A stretch of DNA of 62,623 nt, the filler included. It is 7 parts of 7 records of this genome, joined end to end, with 100 filler letters (N's around TTAATTAATTAA, not from the genome) between each part and the next. Parts side by side here need not be neighbours in the genome. Positions count along the whole stretch, not along the records: positions 42,569 to 50,019 come from SRR31156797_13130; 6 more parts are not named here. One strand, given 5' to 3'. The notes beneath the pieces were generated by a model. It searched no databases and was not told the origin of the DNA. It saw only the letters and a program-made list of their open reading frames with translations. Numbering within the stretch: position 1 is the first letter of the stretch; each line of letters begins with the position of its first letter. The position numbers and the translations under genes were made by a program. This document shows positions 42,569 to 50,019 of this stretch, one piece after another.

Positions 42569-42597
42569 AAGTGGTCCAAAAATCGGGGTTAAGCGCA
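42569..42597. mobile_element. Terminal inverted repeat of an IS3-family element
   Basis: Reverse complement TGCGCTTAACCCCGATTTTTGGACCACTT has the IS3-type 5'-TG...CCCC...GGAC pattern. It abruptly ends the transposase homology next to it. Confidence 0.6.
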
Positions 42598-42886
42598 ACG
42601 CTCTGATAACAGAATGACGATCTAACGAGCCACTCAAATCCCAGCCGACCACAATTCGTGAATATAGATATATAAAAACTGTCAAATAATACCATTGCCT
42701 TCCAATTTTTAAGTAGGTGATATCAGTTACCCAAACCATGTTTGGCGCTGTTACATTGAACTCACGGTTCAACAGATTCTCCGCCACTGGATATGTGTGT
42801 TTAGAATCTGTAGTGTGCAACATATTTCTTCTGAGACCTGCATTCAAATCTTTCATCAGCCTGGCGACTCGGTTTCTGCTACATGT
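42598..42886 (-). pseudogene. Internal fragment of an IS3-family OrfB transposase
   Basis: CSRNRVARLMK...TTDSKH..PVAENLLNREF...PNMVWVTDITY...SRIVVGW; both ends missing. Confidence 0.85.
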
Positions 42887-43017
42887 TCATTCGCATAAAC
42901 GACCCCTGTTTTTTTATTCTTTTGGTATACGATAGCTGCCATTCCCAGCTCTTTTTTTATCGTTACATTACCATATTTTGTAATGATGAAAACCGCAAAA
43001 TAAATTGCAATGTTTTC
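42887..43017 (-). pseudogene. Left end and first codons of an IS1634-like transposase
   Basis: ATG 42942 gives MAAIVYQKNKKTGVVYA(N)E, resembling IS1634 transposase N-termini (recalled pattern MAxIVYQxNKKTGxxYAYE); homology stops after about 19 codons. Confidence 0.55.
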
Positions 43018-43106
43018 TATCTTTTTGATTGTTTGGACGAAATGCTCATTACACTTTTCCGGGAAGGCAGGTGGTATGGACCACCAATGCATCGTAATCC
43101 CTGGGT

Positions 43107-43139
43107 AACATTTTTTGTCATATTATGACAGAATATGTT
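43107..43139. promoter_or_regulatory. Palindromic candidate enhancer (UAS) for a sigma54 activator, probably PilR
   Basis: AACAT-N4-TGTCAT-ATT-ATGACA-N4-ATGTT, about 100 nt upstream of the -24/-12 element. Confidence 0.5.
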
Positions 43140-43224
43140 TGTTTGGAGGAAAAATTTAAATGAACAAAAAAAGCACACTCCTTTTAACACTTTGAAATTA
43201 TAGATAAAAAATATATCATTATTG

Positions 43225-43240
43225 TGGCATGGTTTGTGTA
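43225..43240 (+). promoter_or_regulatory. sigma54-type promoter of the pilin gene
   Basis: TGGCATGGTTTGTGTA: good -24 TGGCA and correct spacing, but -12 is GT instead of GC; 65 nt upstream of the ATG. Confidence 0.55.
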
Positions 43241-43305
43241 TTAACAAATAATCAACTTCAAAAACAATGAAACAAAACCCTAAAATTAATTAAAGGAGAA
43301 GTAAA

Positions 43306-43719
43306 ATGAAAAAAATGTTTAAGAGAGAAGAAGGTTTCACACTTATTGAGTTGATGATCGTTATTGCAATCATTGGTATTCTGGCGGCGATTGCTATCCC
43401 GAACTTTATTGCCTATAGAAATAAAACTTTCTGCTCCAGAGCAGAATCTGATGCGAACAGCATTGCAGCAGCAATTGCTGATTATTTTGCCATTCCCTCT
43501 CACACAGCTACACCGGCCATCGGCCAGTTGAACAATAATCTTGGCCTTACCTTGTCCGGTGAGGCAGCAGATATCAACGTTGGTGTTATAGCAGGTAATG
43601 ATCCCAATGTGAATATTACCATCACAGTCACTGATGGTTCAGGACGGTGCCCTGCCGATTACCAGGCAGCCAGCCAGGATTGGAACGGGGGTGTATACAC
43701 TAAGACCATCAGCTTTTAA
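43306..43719 (+). CDS. pilA: Type IVa major pilin
   Basis: Class III signal [34 protein letters not shown] with E5 and P22; AAGGAG RBS; 127-aa mature chain. Confidence 0.92.
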
Positions 43720-43759
43720 GCCAACTATTTTAGTTACATGATTTAATAACAGAAAAGGC

Positions 43760-45853
43760 ATGGAAAATCTAATTCCATGCCTTTTCACTATTTCCATAAT
43801 GACAGTTCTAAAATCCCATCGGCTAATAGCCCTAGTTATTCTTACCATTATGGTATCCTATGCCTACGGCAATTCCTTTAAGGTGCCCTGGCATTTAGAC
43901 GATATCCCCAATATTCTTAACAATACCTATCTTCATTTAGAAAGGATGGATTTTGAATCCATTAAGAATACGTTCTTTACCAATGCACGGCATCCTTCAG
44001 AACCGGGGAAAAAAATATACCGCCCCATTTCCTGCTTTACCTTTGCCTTGAACTGGTATTCTGGCCGGGATAATGTGTTTGGGTATCATATGGTGAATAC
44101 AGGTATTCATATTCTGACCGCTTTTCTTTTATATCTGACCATCAGGCTTTTATATAAGACTCCCGGTCTAACGGGCCTACAACTTGAATCGAGGCACATT
44201 GCCCTGACAGCTGCCTTAGCTTGGGCTCTTAACCCCGTGCAAACCCAGGCTGTCACCTATATTGTTCAGCGCATGGCCCAATTGGGATGTTTTTTCTATT
44301 TGTTGGGTCTGTTTTTATACCTAAAAGGACGTCTGTCAACGTCACCTAACAAAATCGGAATGTGGTTTGGGGCTGTTGTGGCCTATTTATGCGCGATGGG
44401 TTCCAAGGAAAATTCAGCCATATTGCCTATGGCTATTATATTGGTTGAATTAATTTTTTTTAACACCGTCTGGCTCAAAAATAATAAAAAACTGTTGGTG
44501 GGAGCGGCAATTGTATCGGTGATTTTGGTTCTTGCGTTAGGGGCTGTGGTTTTTTCCAGAGACGACTCCTTGTTTTTCATGGCAAGATATGAATCGCGCC
44601 CATTTTCTATGGTTGAAAGGCTTTTAACCCAGCCTCAAATAGTTTTGTTCTATTTAAGCCAATTGTTTTTCCCTCTGCCGTCAAGGCTTTCCATTGCCCA
44701 TGACGTGACCATATCAAGCTCTTTGTTTTCAAATTGGTTTACTTTACCCTCTATTCTTCTAATCATCGGTATCTGCTGCTGGGCAATGTTGAGAAAAAAT
44801 AAAATACCAATTTTTTCATTTGGTATAATATTTTATTTTTTAAATCATCTCATAGAGTCGACCATCATACCCCTTGAATTGGTATTTGAACACCGGAACT
44901 ACCTTCCGTCCTTATTTTTATTCTGGCCTTTGACGCATCTTATTTTTACCAGGGTATCAACTCATATCAATAGGGCTGCAACATGGGGGGGGATTGTATT
45001 GTTGACCATAGCACTGGCTTCAGCAGCTTTTGTTAGAAACAACACATGGCAAAGCGCTAACTCTTTATGGACCGATGCAATGATAAAGGCTCCCAACCAG
45101 GCCAGGCCCTTGACCATCCTTGCAACTGAGCTTGCCTGGGGAAAAGAGAGTCGACATCCCAAGCGAAACGAGATGGCTTTGCACCTTTTTGAACAAGCCC
45201 TGGAAAAAGAAGTCGCTACAAAAAATCTTAAGGCGGCTATTATTGGAAACATGGCGGCTATTCATTTAAATATTGGAAACAATGATAAGGCGTTACATTT
45301 ATATGAAAAATCATTAGGGATTGACCCAAATGCCTTAGTTGCCAATTATAATTATGCCCTGGCCCTTTTAAAAGCAAGGCAATGGAAAAAAGCCGTTCAG
45401 CAGGCAGACCACCTCCTTTCTTTAACCCCTGAGTCTGTGGCCTATTATATCATAAAGGGGCAGGCTTTCATCTGGGACGGGCTTTTTGAAGAAGCAGTGG
45501 CGGTATTTGACGCTGCAGCTAAAATTGACCCGTTTGATTATAAAGTGTACTTATATAGAGGCATTGCGCTAAATCGGCTGAACCGATTGGAAGCGGCTAA
45601 AAAAAATCTTCAAAATGCATTTACCATTCAAAATAATAGCTTTATGGTTTATCTTGCCTTGATAGAAAATAGTATTCGTGCAAAAAATGAAAAGGAAATA
45701 GAAATCTACATAAAAAAAATGTTTATCGTATTTGATAAAGAGCAAATTGAGCGAGAACTTAAGAGGCTTTCAACCCAGTTTTTATCTGTACCTGTCTCAG
45801 AAATTTTGGTTTTCCCCGTAATTATGAAGCGATTAAAAAATTATGGAAGATAA
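43760..45853 (+). CDS. TMTC-like GT-C membrane glycosyltransferase with C-terminal TPRs
   Basis: DD motif after TM1 (HLDDIPNI), YRP, Q.VTYIVQR, SKE, EHRNYLP, about 11 TM segments, then TPR repeats. True start may be ATG 43799. Confidence 0.8.
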   Translation: MENLIPCLFTISIMTVLKSHRLIALVILTIMVSYAYGNSFKVPWHLDDIPNILNNTYLHLERMDFESIKNTFFTNARHPSEPGKKIYRPISCFTFALNWYSGRDNVFGYHMVNTGIHILTAFLLYLTIRLLYKTPGLTGLQLESRHIALTAALAWALNPVQTQAVTYIVQRMAQLGCFFYLLGLFLYLKGRLSTSPNKIGMWFGAVVAYLCAMGSKENSAILPMAIILVELIFFNTVWLKNNKKLLVGAAIVSVILVLALGAVVFSRDDSLFFMARYESRPFSMVERLLTQPQIVLFYLSQLFFPLPSRLSIAHDVTISSSLFSNWFTLPSILLIIGICCWAMLRKNKIPIFSFGIIFYFLNHLIESTIIPLELVFEHRNYLPSLFLFWPLTHLIFTRVSTHINRAATWGGIVLLTIALASAAFVRNNTWQSANSLWTDAMIKAPNQARPLTILATELAWGKESRHPKRNEMALHLFEQALEKEVATKNLKAAIIGNMAAIHLNIGNNDKALHLYEKSLGIDPNALVANYNYALALLKARQWKKAVQQADHLLSLTPESVAYYIIKGQAFIWDGLFEEAVAVFDAAAKIDPFDYKVYLYRGIALNRLNRLEAAKKNLQNAFTIQNNSFMVYLALIENSIRAKNEKEIEIYIKKMFIVFDKEQIERELKRLSTQFLSVPVSEILVFPVIMKRLKNYGR

Positions 45854-47009
45854 AAAAAAGGTGGTACCCTTACACGTACTGGCCTATTTTATACCCGTCT
45901 GCGTCCTTGTTTTTGCCGGGTTAATTGTATCCTTGTATCTGTCCTACTCCCATTATAAGGTTTATACGGATATCGGTTATGCCAGTTTTTGTGCAGTATC
46001 AAAAGCAATTAATTGTGACACGGTATCCCAGAGTTCGTATTCAATTTTTTTTAACCTTCCGGTTCCACTTTGGGGGGCATATGGATATCTGTTTTTAACT
46101 GTACTAGTGTTGATTTCCCTGGACCTTAGAAATAATACAATGCGGCTATTACCCACCCAATTGATAGTGTCATTTACGTTCAGCATTGTCAGCCTAATAT
46201 TAGGCGCTATTTCCGCGCTGAAGATCCACTCTTATTGTTTTTTATGTATTTCAACCTATGCCATTAACTTTTTTCTATTTTTTCTGTTTTTATTGCTCAT
46301 CAGGCGATATTCGTCCGGTTCTTTTTTAAAGGGTGTCCTAAAGGATGTTGATTTTCTGAATAAAAGAAGAACCCTTTTTTTTGCCTTATCTGCTTTTTTT
46401 TCGGGGCTTTTGATAGTATTATATATAATAGTCCCTCAATATTGGCATATTCAATCCAGACGGGTGGCAATCGATTTACCTAGCGGTATTACCGAAGAGG
46501 GGGACCCTTGGATTGGTTCTGTTAATCCCGAGATAGAAATTATAGAGTATACGGACTATCAATGTTTTCAATGCAAGAAAATGCATTTTTATCTCAGGAG
46601 CCTGATCGTCGAGTTTCCAGATAAAATCAGGTTGATTCATCGCCATTTCCCTCTTGATCAGGGTGTCAACCGATTTTTGGAAAATAGTGTCCATCCCGGA
46701 TCCGGCATGTTGGCAAAGATTGCTGTTTTCGCGGCTAAACAAGGAAAATTCTGGGAGGCTAATGACTACCTTTTTAATTATGACCTTTCTGAAAAATCCA
46801 TTTATTTGAAGCAAATTTCCCAGGATTTGGGGTTTGATCTTGAATTATTTAAAATAGGTGTTCACCGTATTGAGGTCTGCCGGAAACTTGAACAGGATAT
46901 TAAATCAGGAATAAGAAAAAAGGTCATCGGTACCCCCGCCTATATCATAAACGGGACGGTCTATTTTGGTAACATTCCTCAGGGCGTCATCGACCATATT
47001 TTAAAATGA
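45843..47009 (+). CDS. VKOR-DsbA(thioredoxin-fold) fusion disulfide-bond formation protein
   Basis: VKOR loop cysteines C-AVSKAIN-C, TM CFLC active site, then DsbA-like DYQCFQC, RHFPL and cis-Pro GTP. Confidence 0.9.
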   Translation: MEDKKKVVPLHVLAYFIPVCVLVFAGLIVSLYLSYSHYKVYTDIGYASFCAVSKAINCDTVSQSSYSIFFNLPVPLWGAYGYLFLTVLVLISLDLRNNTMRLLPTQLIVSFTFSIVSLILGAISALKIHSYCFLCISTYAINFFLFFLFLLLIRRYSSGSFLKGVLKDVDFLNKRRTLFFALSAFFSGLLIVLYIIVPQYWHIQSRRVAIDLPSGITEEGDPWIGSVNPEIEIIEYTDYQCFQCKKMHFYLRSLIVEFPDKIRLIHRHFPLDQGVNRFLENSVHPGSGMLAKIAVFAAKQGKFWEANDYLFNYDLSEKSIYLKQISQDLGFDLELFKIGVHRIEVCRKLEQDIKSGIRKKVIGTPAYIINGTVYFGNIPQGVIDHILK

Positions 47010-48652
47010 TTGTAATCTTAAAAAGAATTTTTTTCCCTTTCTCGCTGTTGCTTTATTCACTTTTGATAGTCGTTATGGGGGCTGTTCCGCCTGTCAGCCG
47101 GGATGCCCTGACCCATCACCTTGCAGTTCCTAAACTATATCTCAAGTATGGTGGTATTATTGAATTGCCCCATATACGACCCTCATATTATCCCCAGCTC
47201 CTTGATTTTCTTTATTGCATTCCCATGTATTTCGGCAACGATACTATTCCAAAAATTATTCATTTTTCTTTTGCTCTGCTCACAGCACGACTCATTTATG
47301 GGTATCTGAAACATAGACTAGGGCGCCCCTATGCATATGCCGGATGCATCTTTTTTCTGACTCTGCCGGTAATCATCAAATTATCCGTCACGGTATACGT
47401 TGACTTGGGATTGGTTTTTTTTTCAACTGCAGCATTAATGAGCCTGCTAAAATGGAAAGATTGCGCCGGTGAAGTGAGGTGGCTTATTTTGTCAGCAACC
47501 TGCTGTGGTCTATCCCTCGGAACAAAATACAATGGCCTGATAACATTTTTTTTATTGACGGCACTTACATCTTGGATTTCAGCCAGAAACACATGGAAAA
47601 AAAAACATGGCCAAAACAGATTTAATTTCACCCCGGTGATCCATTGTTTTATTTACCTATCCATTGCTTTAGCTGTTTTTTCACCCTGGGTGGTTAAAAA
47701 CTATAAGTGGACCCAAAATCCGTTATATCCATTGTTAAATACTTATTTTACCCCATCCCCGATTCCTGATCTCGACACTCCCATTAAATTTCCTAAAATG
47801 CATCCTTTTCTCATCCGAAAACTAGTATATAAAGAAAATTTCTTTGAAACAATTACCGTCCCTGTCCGGATCTTCTTTCAAGGGAAGGATGATAATCCTA
47901 AACTTTTTGACGGACGCCTCAACCCCTTGTTATGCCTTCTGCCAATATTCGCTTTTTTTTTTAGACCGCGATCAGATACAGACGGGCATTCGAACAATAA
48001 TTTGATACTTCTAAGTTTTTCCCTTCTCTATATTCTTATGGTATTTTTTTACAATGATATGAGGCTCAGGTGGATTGGTCCTGCCATACCCCCTCTCGTT
48101 ATTTTGTCGGCATATGGCTTTCATCACCTATTTTCGAAATGTGCAACGATCCAAAAAAGAGGCCTCTTAGTGCAGAGGACGTTTATTCTTGGCGTTCTAC
48201 TTATAGGGGGAATGAATCTGGTCTATTTGGCACAGCTTTTTTGGAAAATAGATCCTTTACCGTATCTTACCGGAAAACTTCCACGGGAAGCCTATATTGA
48301 AAAATTTAGGCCGGAGTTCCCAGCCTTCGAATTTGCCAATTCTCAATTAAAGGGAAATGTAAAATTTTATGGTTTTTTTCTGGGAGGACGACTCTATTAT
48401 TTAGATCATGAAATAAGGTTTAATCATGATATTTTTAAAAAAATAGTCATGGATAGCCAAACTCCACAACAAATTCGAAATTATTTGTTTGAAAACAAAA
48501 TAACTGGGCTGATTCTAAATATACCGGCCTTTGAAAATTGGGCGAATAAACAATTTAAAAATAACGATAAATTGAAGATTAAGTCTTTTTTGAGGCGCTA
48601 TACCCAATTATTATTTTTAAAAAATAATCATGGTGTTTATGCCCTTTTATGA
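47006..48652 (+). CDS. ArnT/PMT-like GT-C integral membrane glycosyltransferase
   Basis: DALTHHL..PK, YYP, YVDL, GTKY motifs; about 12 TM segments; ATGA overlap with the upstream stop. Confidence 0.72.
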   Translation: MIVILKRIFFPFSLLLYSLLIVVMGAVPPVSRDALTHHLAVPKLYLKYGGIIELPHIRPSYYPQLLDFLYCIPMYFGNDTIPKIIHFSFALLTARLIYGYLKHRLGRPYAYAGCIFFLTLPVIIKLSVTVYVDLGLVFFSTAALMSLLKWKDCAGEVRWLILSATCCGLSLGTKYNGLITFFLLTALTSWISARNTWKKKHGQNRFNFTPVIHCFIYLSIALAVFSPWVVKNYKWTQNPLYPLLNTYFTPSPIPDLDTPIKFPKMHPFLIRKLVYKENFFETITVPVRIFFQGKDDNPKLFDGRLNPLLCLLPIFAFFFRPRSDTDGHSNNNLILLSFSLLYILMVFFYNDMRLRWIGPAIPPLVILSAYGFHHLFSKCATIQKRGLLVQRTFILGVLLIGGMNLVYLAQLFWKIDPLPYLTGKLPREAYIEKFRPEFPAFEFANSQLKGNVKFYGFFLGGRLYYLDHEIRFNHDIFKKIVMDSQTPQQIRNYLFENKITGLILNIPAFENWANKQFKNNDKLKIKSFLRRYTQLLFLKNNHGVYALL

Positions 48653-48856
48653 GTTTTAATTCATAGGAAGGCTCTTGCATAGAGGTCTTTTTTTATGAGA
48701 CAAACCGTTTCAGAAAAAGCTCTCTATAAAATAGCCATACTAAAAATTATTCAAACCCAAAAAGCTAATTTTAACTTATTATGGAAATTTTTTTTGTGTG
48801 CAACTTATAATACTGATTATAATTAATGCTTTACGAAAAATTGTTTTGGAGATCCC

Positions 48857-49798
48857 ATGTATAAAGATAAATGTGTCTGTGCCGTTGTTCCATGTTTTAA
48901 TGAAGAGACCCAAATAGGTGTTGTTATTGAAACTATGCCTGAATTCATGGATAAAATAGTAATAATTGATGATAACAGTCCTGATAAAACAGTGTCAGTC
49001 GTAAACGACTATGCACAAAACAATGACCGCATTGTTTTGATCGTCCATGATGAAAATCAAGGAGTAGGTGGTAGTATAGCCACAGGATACAAGTGGGCTA
49101 GGGACAATGATATGGATATGGCGGTTGTAATGGCAGGAGATGGACAGATGAATCCTGAGGATCTGCCTGCCCTTCTGGACCCGGTGATAAACAAGGAGGC
49201 TGACTATACTAAGGGGAATCGTCTGTTTACCGGGAAGGCCTTTCAGAAGATTCCAAAAATCAGGTATTTTGGAAACAGTTTTCTTTCTTTATTTACTAAA
49301 ATAGCTTCAGGCTATTGGCAGATAGCCGATTCCCAGTCTGGGTACACTGTAATAAATAAAAAAACGCTTCATGCTATTGACTGGGACAAGATGTATAAGC
49401 GGTACGGTCAACCTAATGATATTTTGGTCAGGCTGAATGTTGAAAATTTTAGGGTAAAAGATGTGCCAGTGGAGCCAATTTATAATATTGGAGAAAAATC
49501 CGGGATTGAGATCCGTAAAGTAATTTTCAGTATTGGCTGGCTGCTGGTTAAACTCTTTGTGTGGCGAATGAAGGAAAGGTATATTATCAGGGATTTCCAT
49601 CCCCTCGTATTTTTTTATCTTTTGGGATTTATGTCAGGCTTGGCATCTATACTGCTTTTTTTACGGCTTTTTATCATTTGGTTTAGCACCGGACACATTC
49701 CGGCCATAAACGCATTGGCGGCAATGGTCTCATTTCTCAGCGCCAGTCAGTTTACTCTTTTTGCCATGTGGTTTGATATGGAGGCAAATAAAAAGTAG
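48857..49798 (+). CDS. GT2 glycosyltransferase, DPM1/polyprenol-phosphate glycosyltransferase-like, with two C-terminal TMs
   Basis: VVPCFNEE, IDDNSPD, NQGVG, MAGDGQM, KGNR, DSQSGY. Confidence 0.87.
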   Translation: MYKDKCVCAVVPCFNEETQIGVVIETMPEFMDKIVIIDDNSPDKTVSVVNDYAQNNDRIVLIVHDENQGVGGSIATGYKWARDNDMDMAVVMAGDGQMNPEDLPALLDPVINKEADYTKGNRLFTGKAFQKIPKIRYFGNSFLSLFTKIASGYWQIADSQSGYTVINKKTLHAIDWDKMYKRYGQPNDILVRLNVENFRVKDVPVEPIYNIGEKSGIEIRKVIFSIGWLLVKLFVWRMKERYIIRDFHPLVFFYLLGFMSGLASILLFLRLFIIWFSTGHIPAINALAAMVSFLSASQFTLFAMWFDMEANKK

Positions 49799-49811
49799 AG
49801 GCTTTATAGCC

Positions 49812-50018
49812 CTAATTTGCCTCCATCTTGTCTAACCGATACCGCATGGACCGCATACTCAGGTTGAGGTATTCGGCAGCTTTTTTCTTATTACCGCCTG
49901 CCAGTTCCATGGCTTTTTCCAGGTAGGCAGATTCTATCTTGGCCAGAATCCGGTCCAGATCAACACCAGAGACCACATCCTCAAGGTCGAACCGTTCTTC
50001 TTTAACCCCTTCGATCCA
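49812..50018 (-). CDS. pilR: C-terminal Fis-type HTH of a sigma54-dependent response regulator (PilR-like), partial
   Basis: Not in the ORF track. Manual translation gives ...VDLDRILAKIESAYLEKAMELAGGNKKKAAEYLNLSMRSMRYRLDKMEAN*. SxRSxRYRL is typical of PilR, and a pilin is nearby. Confidence 0.7.
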   Translation of the reverse strand, partial: WIEGVKEERFDLEDVVSGVDLDRILAKIESAYLEKAMELAGGNKKKAAEYLNLSMRSMRYRLDKMEAN

Positions 50019-50019
50019 C

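Follow-up and report, generated by a model that had tools for sequence, protein, structure and literature searches.

A probable pilin O-glycosylation cassette behind pilA in Desulfobacterota, with a TPR-tailed GT-C enzyme and a VKOR-DsbA fusion

The window analyzed here is a stretch of 62,623 nucleotides made of seven pieces with N-linkers between them. One piece, a contig of ~7.4 kb at positions 42569 to 50019, carries a type IV pilin gene (pilA) followed by genes for a TPR-tailed, TMTC-like GT-C glycosyltransferase, a VKOR-DsbA fusion, a second GT-C and a GT2 glycosyltransferase. We read this block as a cassette for TfpW-like O-glycosylation of the pilin that includes an oxidase of its own and would mature the pilin in the periplasm, and we assign this reading a probability of roughly 0.68 from sequence comparisons, structural models and analogy. 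It is probably an enlarged form of the Pseudomonas pilin-glycosylation kit, found in sulfate-reducing bacteria. The kind of system is already known, and both its architecture and a pilin substrate have their precedent in TfpW. Folds, conserved catalytic residues, genomic linkage, co-occurrence and co-divergence are the observed basis, from which we infer all of the chemistry. A preliminary description of this DNA had recognized the five genes correctly: all five open reading frames lie on the plus strand where it had placed them (Table 1), with 40 nt between pilA and the TMTC-like gene, an 11-nt overlap of the latter with the VKOR-DsbA gene, a 4-nt ATGA overlap into the second GT-C gene, and 204 nt before the GT2 gene.

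Is this gene arrangement a coincidence of one contig? It is not due to chance, since it recurs in loci gathered by any of four different genes. A genome scan with the TMTC-like gene, of which the best 80 of at least 621 matches were followed, gave 75 loci, nearly all titled Desulfobacterota or deltaproteobacteria, where pilR and pilA typically precede one to three copies of the TMTC-like gene, after which come VKOR-DsbA, the second GT-C and the GT2. Close relatives were defined as scoring at least 450 bits on the profile and having 3 kb of flank on both sides, and 28 of 87 were dropped for short flanks. A pilin gene lies within 3 kb of 48 of the 59 that remained and of 3/3 from control regions, or 51 of 62 together, bearing out the linkage to pilA that had been proposed. 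Within 7 kb of the 59 close relatives, VKOR is found in 37, the second GT-C in 36 and a close GT2 (at least 45% identity) in 18. The control covered 151 genomes across the phylum, 72 of them with a TMTC-like match and up to 12 each; 60 regions were fetched around higher-scoring matches, three of which are paralogues fetched separately. In these regions a pilin lies within 3 kb of 3/3 copies at 450 bits or more, 2/15 at 300 to 450 bits and 1/31 below. Distant paralogues have a pilin within 3 kb in 3 of 46 evaluable cases, and around pilin-unlinked copies the neighbors include both glycan and unrelated genes (89 of 151 candidate neighbors scanned). In a FastTree phylogeny of 162 domains, nearly all pilin-linked copies fall into one clade of 95 rows (support 0.996), and further ones fall in a five-row clade or stand at three other loci (L108, L122 and L027). 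It is the clade, not the family, that is pilin-linked; the objection foreseen in the preliminary description, that homologues might usually lie away from pilins, holds for most of the family and fails for this clade. Seen from the pilin side, 42 gathered loci (a few repeating earlier ones) left 37 evaluable after two with other pilins and three at contig ends were dropped. A cassette gene is next door in 32 (TMTC clade in 26, VKOR in 3, second GT-C in 3), with a weak TPR/TMTC match in 3 and nothing in 2. The linkage is kept through inversion and rearrangement, in tandem as well as tail-to-tail loci.

Variants of the locus were recorded as well. Tail-to-tail loci L027, L033, L057, L065, L070 and L239 encode a pilin with a Geobacter PilA-like N-terminal helix and no Cys pair, and they keep the TMTC-like gene and the second GT-C while VKOR-DsbA is absent. 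Desulfonema magnum (G001) has a second pilin locus (L155), whose pilin has four Cys and which also carries a homologue of the second GT-C and a tandem array of four distant TMTC-like genes; here a different TMTC-like clade is recruited to a pilin. At L096, L097 and L098 an 800-aa TMTC-like gene, from a clade outside the main one, stands between two pilin genes. TMTC-like GT-Cs of ~400 aa without a long TPR tail follow GT2 and DUF2304 genes in L110, L112, L113, L115 and L116, with separate TPR genes adjoining them in L110 and L115. VKOR-DsbA orthologues have no pilin, TMTC-like gene or second GT-C in view in L173, L178, L192, L199, L200, L207 and L222. Eight genomes (G024, G041, G060, G062, G063, G081, G108 and G125) have 11 to 12 scored TMTC-like matches, a large paralogue expansion. 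Broken cassette genes, namely the TMTC-like gene in pieces in L300 and L032, the second GT-C also in L032 and the VKOR-DsbA gene in L001, reflect either sequencing error or decay.

The TPR-tailed enzyme has a modeled fold (predicted local distance difference test [pLDDT] score, 91.6), with GT-C matches spanning residues ~14 to 460. Its fold match to STT3 has Z 20.0 (root mean square deviation [rmsd] 5.0, 330 residues aligned), other GT-C matches are AglB (Z 17.8), Pmt2 (17.4), ArnT (17.2) and ALG12 (16.9), and the rest of both structure-match lists consists of TPR proteins. Foldseek with the whole 697-aa model gave only TPR proteins among the matches listed. At the sequence level, Pfam finds TPRs at ~496 to 630 and a PMT_2 match under the cut-off (E 0.0018), PDB sequence searches returned TPR matches only for the TMTC-like protein and none for its GT-C part alone, and no TMTC entry is among the PDB matches listed. 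The D47-D48 pair is unchanged in 117/117 aligned sequences, as are R88, R171, K216, E366, E377, H378, R379 and Y381. Against the seven TMTC motifs, M1 to M7, given in PMC7801869, M1 DD and M4 KE are present (K216 in 117/117, E217 in 84/117), M2 SHKSYRP keeps just YRP (87-89), and M7 ERxxY appears as the variant EHRNY at 377-381, with H after E. M3 RxD is not kept (R171-M-A173), nor is M5 DW (A313-H314 at the DY position of paralogue L117, with D315, in 114/117, one step on), nor M6 PxxP (a single Pro at 371). PF08409 (TMTC_DUF1736) has no match in the 697-aa protein and matches 0/41 close members; its cut-off is passed by 2/33 more distant paralogues, with one more weak match. One distant bacterial paralogue aligns to the 697-aa protein (28%, 418 columns, E 1e-24), and a neighbor cluster in the Atlas is eukaryotic TMTC_DUF1736 (score 0.91). 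The protein is TMTC-like, not a TMTC member, and since M3 and M5 are not kept, mannose cannot be assumed as the sugar, contrary to what the preliminary description implied. Among the hidden Markov models named there as a check, VKOR and DSBA score over the cut-off in the fusion protein, while for the 697-aa protein PF08409 does not match and PMT_2 stays under.

The closest precedent is TfpW, described as the pilin D-arabinofuranosyltransferase of Pseudomonas group IV strains Pa5196 and PA7: a GT-C of 646 aa with DDX, 11 predicted helices and a TPR tail, encoded directly behind pilA, which O-glycosylates the pilin and suffices alone in Pseudomonas (10.1101/2020.04.19.049825). The cassette enzyme, at 697 aa, matches that description in its place directly behind pilA, a first-loop DDX, ~11 helices (counted in the model by eye) and a TPR tail. 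Because TfpW has this architecture, a pilin substrate for a GT-C with DDX, 11 transmembrane helices and TPRs has already been shown experimentally, a point that had escaped the preliminary description. The TfpW motif YX6PFX7P of the fourth periplasmic loop is half kept (Y298 in 111/117, P305 in 114/117); unlike in TfpW, position 306 is L, V, I or M, position 314 is H and no second P is found there. The partners also differ, TfpX or DprE1/E2 for TfpW versus VKOR-DsbA, second GT-C and GT2 here, and the cassette has up to three close TMTC-like copies per locus, unlike TfpW as described. The TfpW homologues listed in that source are gamma- and betaproteobacterial whereas the cassette belongs to Desulfobacterota, and the likeness is one of architecture and motif description. 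No NCBIfam match named TfpW was found at E 0.1, and no DprE1/E2-like family occurs among the recurring neighbors scanned. Animal TMTC1-4, reported as O-mannosyltransferases (PMC7801869, PMC13123603), share GT-C plus TPRs with the cassette enzyme; their acceptor is cadherin, whereas that of the cassette enzyme would be the pilin. In cable bacteria, the pilA cluster is described as having one or more TPR genes behind pilA and genes for sugar modification close by (PMC10580974), and L031, L038 and L041 are loci of this type. That source reads the TPR genes as protein-interaction proteins, not as GT-C enzymes, and the accessible part of its text mentions neither VKOR-DsbA nor pilin glycosylation. 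Across the open literature, exclusive of subscription journals and preprint supplements, we found no account that treats the block as a pilin kit built on GT-C and VKOR, and none that connects TfpW with TMTC.

Which enzyme tracks the pilin? Distances between pilin globular domains, taken pair by pair, were compared with those of each cassette part, with Mantel P values, in sets that overlap except for 13 held-out loci. At n=15 the correlation is 0.54 with the TPR part and 0.11, -0.11, 0.15 and 0.09 with the GT-C half, VKOR, second GT-C and PilR; at n=36, rho is 0.48 with the TPR part and 0.31 with the GT-C half. The 13 held-out loci give 0.64 and -0.03, and removal of a seven-member subtype gives 0.58 and 0.38, in the same order. 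At n=30 the value for the TPR part is 0.57, and 0.57 as a partial correlation (P = 0.0005) controlling for five other cassette parts and GC. In tandem loci the pilin gene abuts the GT-C end of the TMTC-like gene, so adjacency alone would favor the GT-C half. Supported tree splits agree with the pilin at 0.74 for the TPR part and 0.73 for the GT-C half, versus 0.37-0.55 for VKOR, DsbA and second GT-C, and in quartets where the two enzyme halves conflict, the pilin sides with the TPR part in 1358, with the GT-C half in 735 and with neither in 547. The pilin and the TMTC-like gene travel together, and the signal is moderately stronger for the TPR tail. This difference fits TPR-based acceptor recognition as in TMEM260, for which the TPR part is reported to be enough for acceptor binding (10.64898/2026.03.17.711096). 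By analogy, the TPR-tailed GT-C probably recognizes the pilin by its TPRs and O-glycosylates Ser/Thr, and linkage together with co-divergence makes the pilin its likely substrate, as had been proposed.

The second GT-C (548-aa model, pLDDT 87.0) has a GT-C fold with a periplasmic alpha/beta domain and one invariant Asp, D33, so that both transferases model as GT-C enzymes, as foreseen. Its fold matches are a near tie between ArnT (Z 24.7, rmsd 4.4, 436 aligned), ALG12 (24.4) and Pmt2 (24.0). The gene is single-copy and occurs in 28 of 301 genomes. The GT2 has a single PDB match, the archaeal Dol-P-Man synthase 5mlz (E 4.9e-8), and its best named families, AglJ and PpgS, are far under their cut-offs (75.5 of 325 bits and 62.6 of 370). 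It has AGD in place of DxD, and in 21 close GT2 rows the motif reads A-x-D in 12 and D-G-D in 7, with no match in 2. Its GT2 domain is followed by C-terminal membrane helices, as in the DPM1, GtrB, AglJ and PpgS synthases. A self-contained pathway, as had been suggested, is not supported: no GtrA-type flippase is found on the contig or among the recurring neighbor families scanned, and a GT2 of at least 45% identity lies within 7 kb of less than a third of the close relatives (18/59). LPG-synthase-TM proteins occur in 6/76 loci. The three-component GtrA/GtrB/Gtr* systems (PMC11127046) share a GT2 donor synthase and a GT-C with the cassette, which differs from them as described there in having no GtrA-type flippase on the contig, two GT-Cs and a proposed protein acceptor.

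Such GT2 plus GT-C systems modify O-antigen, and the pilin could be the mere neighbor of a general envelope-glycosylation island at pilA, whose GT-Cs act on other periplasmic or surface proteins, lipid A or, in GtrABC style, O-antigen. Most paralogues do stand by GT2, GT4, DUF2304, LPG-synthase-TM, methyltransferase or radical-SAM genes without a pilin, the same families vary around the cassette, and in its fold the second GT-C matches ArnT best. However, the linkage to pilA withstands inversion and rearrangement, the pilin co-diverges with the TMTC-like gene but with neither PilR nor the rest of the cassette, and the families scanned include no GtrA flippase. We regard this explanation as unlikely; it is less credible for the first GT-C than for the second.

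In a further alternative, the pilin would be glycosylated mainly by the second GT-C, and the TPR-tailed protein would be a chaperone specific to the pilin or an enzyme of secondary importance. Among 20 loci fetched by the second GT-C, a pilin is found in 12 regions (one doubtful), and in four (L241, L255, L256 and L258) the second GT-C adjoins a pilin with no TMTC-like gene in view, which also speaks against the earlier proposal that this enzyme extends the glycan. It is near pilins of several types, its periplasmic alpha/beta domain resembles oligosaccharyltransferases, and the TPR-tailed clade is without the acids of TMTC M3 and M5. Yet ten residues of the TPR-tailed protein are constant in every aligned sequence, which is what catalytic activity would predict, co-divergence between the pilin and the second GT-C is absent (rho -0.08 and 0.12), and TfpW as described is enough on its own in Pseudomonas. 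We consider this division of labor rather improbable.

The VKOR-DsbA fusion has six Cys (C50, C58, C132-x-x-C135 and C241-x-x-C244) that are unchanged, together with the cis-Pro P365, in 34/34 sequences. It shares the four VKOR Cys, a fused CXXC domain and the cis-Pro loop with the VKOR-thioredoxin fusion of PDB 3kp9, 4nv2 and 4nv6; unlike in that protein, the fused domain best matches DsbA/ScsC/BdbD-type chains, and the gene is part of a pilin cassette of strict anaerobes. Of 53 loci in which the pilin adjoins the TPR-tailed enzyme, 39 encode a Cys-pair pilin and 14 do not; VKOR-DsbA accompanies 32 of the former and 0 of the latter. A Cys pair means a late Cys together with an early one at position 29 or 33, and L001, where VKOR is split over two frames, was scored as lacking it. 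By this contrast, the pilin disulfide is likely formed by VKOR-DsbA, as proposed earlier, and from sequence patterns we think it probable that the bond formed is Cys33-Cys105. In genomes chosen for pilins without a Cys pair, VKOR is found in 1 of 21, adjoining a second, Cys-pair pilin. Genome G169 has two locus types with VKOR only at that of the Cys-pair pilin; it had been taken as an exception to the pattern and was dropped as such, the VKOR belonging to its second locus. Metagenome loci gathered by VKOR-DsbA (80) include a major pilin in 22, with at least two Cys in 22/22. Among 12 genomes with a two-Cys pilin and no VKOR in the locus, VKOR is found elsewhere in 5. It is very unlikely that the pilin is glycosylated as proposed and VKOR-DsbA is merely co-inherited, as a general periplasmic oxidase or one serving a partner of the second GT-C: genomes with a full-length match have one copy each, stand-alone copies and pairs with the second GT-C away from pilA occur, and VKOR does not co-diverge with the pilin, but it is missing from the loci and all but one of the genomes of pilins without a Cys pair, and VKOR comes right after pilA, uninterrupted by a TMTC-like gene, in L182, L186, L191, L213, L217 and L228. 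General and pilin-serving roles are in any case compatible.

Several observations weigh against reading the block as a pilin-glycosylation cassette with its own oxidase. The wider TMTC-like family is large and mostly found in general glycan loci or unrelated context, so its enzymes have other acceptors, two of the 37 pilin loci have no cassette gene next door, and a frameshift is present in one TMTC-like gene. By tree shape the TPR part (0.74) and the GT-C half (0.73) are about equal, joint inheritance of neighbors explains part of the signal, and the Mantel P values are too small, as kin loci are treated as independent. For the oxidase, 7 of the 12 two-Cys-pilin genomes without VKOR in the locus show none genome-wide (these are drafts), at least 7 of the 80 VKOR-DsbA loci contain no cassette gene, and VKOR and the second GT-C remain paired away from pilA in L149-L153. 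The Cys/VKOR pattern is also close to one phylogenetic contrast, between sister subclades of 74 and 20 rows, so the association is weaker than its counts look.

The pilin itself has the type IVa hallmarks of a short leader, G|F cleavage, E5 and a hydrophobic helix; its N-terminal helix is nearest to Geobacter pilins and its globular domain is Ser/Thr-rich. C33, C105, P106 and W116 are unchanged in 39/39 pilins, a set picked on C33. Candidate O-sites are S34, S38, S74, T95/T97/T99 and S102, with Ser/Thr at 59-97% of the 39; for the alternating T95/T97/T99 stretch the values are 59%, 59% and 72%. The resemblance of this stretch to a cadherin-like alternating-Thr strand is a lead only, such patterns being common in beta-strands. 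N-glycosylation was considered, and N-x-S/T sites number 0-5 per pilin, none conserved. A relaxed sigma-54 pattern is found upstream of pilA in 31 of 39 regions, this contig included, where shuffles expect 0.5; the strict pattern is found in 25 of 39, this contig excluded, and sigma-70-like sites (26 versus 21.6 expected) show no excess over chance. Of the 39 regions behind pilA, 34 contain a hairpin with a z score under -2. In Pseudomonas, pilin genes separated from their accessory genes by a terminator have been described (PMC11841053), and a hairpin by itself is no proof of co-transcription. On this contig the start codon at 43760 falls within the hairpin and residues 1-12 of the TMTC-like model have pLDDT below 50, so translation may in fact begin at the ATG at 43799.

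How would such a kit work? pilA would be transcribed from the sigma-54 promoter, and the hairpin behind it may lower read-through into the accessory genes. While the pilin is in the inner membrane, VKOR-DsbA would oxidize Cys33-Cys105, tying the alpha-1 helix to the C-terminal part. The TPR-tailed GT-C would grip the globular domain through its TPRs and, in a TfpW-like manner, move a sugar from a polyprenyl-phosphate donor to Ser/Thr via D47-D48. The second GT-C might add a further sugar, either at other pilin sites or on the first sugar, and the GT2 may make one lipid-phosphate-sugar donor. Flipping and nucleotide-sugar synthesis would be encoded elsewhere or by variable neighbors.

Table 1. 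Predicted features of the cassette-bearing contig (positions in the window)
Feature	Position	Strand	Evidence or remark
Sigma-54-type promoter site, GT replaces GC at -12	43225..43239	+	Relaxed pattern, upstream of pilA
pilA, type IVa major pilin, 127 aa mature, Cys33 and Cys105	43306..43719	+	Pfam N_methyl
14-bp hairpin between pilA and accessory genes, probable terminator/attenuator	43752..43786	+	z -7.0
TMTC/TfpW-like GT-C (~15-445) with TPR tail, 697 aa, D47-D48, probable pilin O-glycosyltransferase	43760..45853	+	Fold model, linkage, co-divergence
VKOR-DsbA fusion, 388 aa, probable pilin disulfide oxidase	45843..47009	+	Pfam VKOR and DSBA, co-occurrence with Cys-pair pilins
Second GT-C, ArnT-like, 548 aa, periplasmic alpha/beta domain, D33	47006..48652	+	Pfam PMT (E 2e-9), fold model
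GT2 with C-terminal membrane helices, 313 aa, probable polyprenyl-phosphate-sugar synthase, optional member	48857..49798	+	Pfam Glycos_transf_2
PilR-like activator, C-terminal 68 aa (Fis-type helix-turn-helix), truncated at contig end	49812..50019	-	HTH_8

Of the convergent pilR-like gene said to close the block, only the last 68 codons lie on the contig. The fragment is 41-74% identical to the C terminus of a 458-503 aa protein adjoining pilA in relatives, and its convergent position is the same in L045, L160 and L162. At the other contig end, upstream of pilA, an integrase (rve) fragment (42569-42856, minus strand) is probably part of an insertion sequence that broke the assembly. GC varies among the pieces of the window (1-62623), from ~0.29 in the first 28 kb to ~0.55, so the pieces may derive from more than one organism. 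An Rfam scan and a plasmid search gave no match, and the viral contigs searched gave just one 22-residue match, which was disregarded.

A broader idea, which we offer tentatively and hold to be possible though somewhat doubtful, is that TfpW, the Desulfobacterota clade and the animal TMTCs form one family of TPR-guided protein O-glycosyltransferases. In the Desulfobacterota clade the TPR tail would read the pilin and change with it, tandem copies would each act on sites of their own, as on cadherins the sites of TMTC2 differ from those of TMTC3, and the helix-to-C-terminus disulfide would be closed by a VKOR-DsbA dedicated to the task. If so, PilA of cable bacteria, reported to be their most highly expressed protein with a role that is not known (PMC10580974), would be a disulfide-locked glycoprotein, and a 127-residue pilin would provide a simple bacterial substrate for TMTC-type catalysis; PMC7801869, which noted prokaryotic TMTC-like proteins, names no substrate for them in its accessible text. 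The small cognate pilin, the cultured carriers (such as L020, Desulfofustis glycolicus DSM 9705) and the natural TPR-pilin pairs would make recognition testable by swaps of the TPR tail. Pilin glycosylation, reported to block pilus phages in Pseudomonas (10.1101/150227), would thereby reach sulfate reducers and cable bacteria, and the cassette suggests how strict anaerobes may supply a pilin disulfide.

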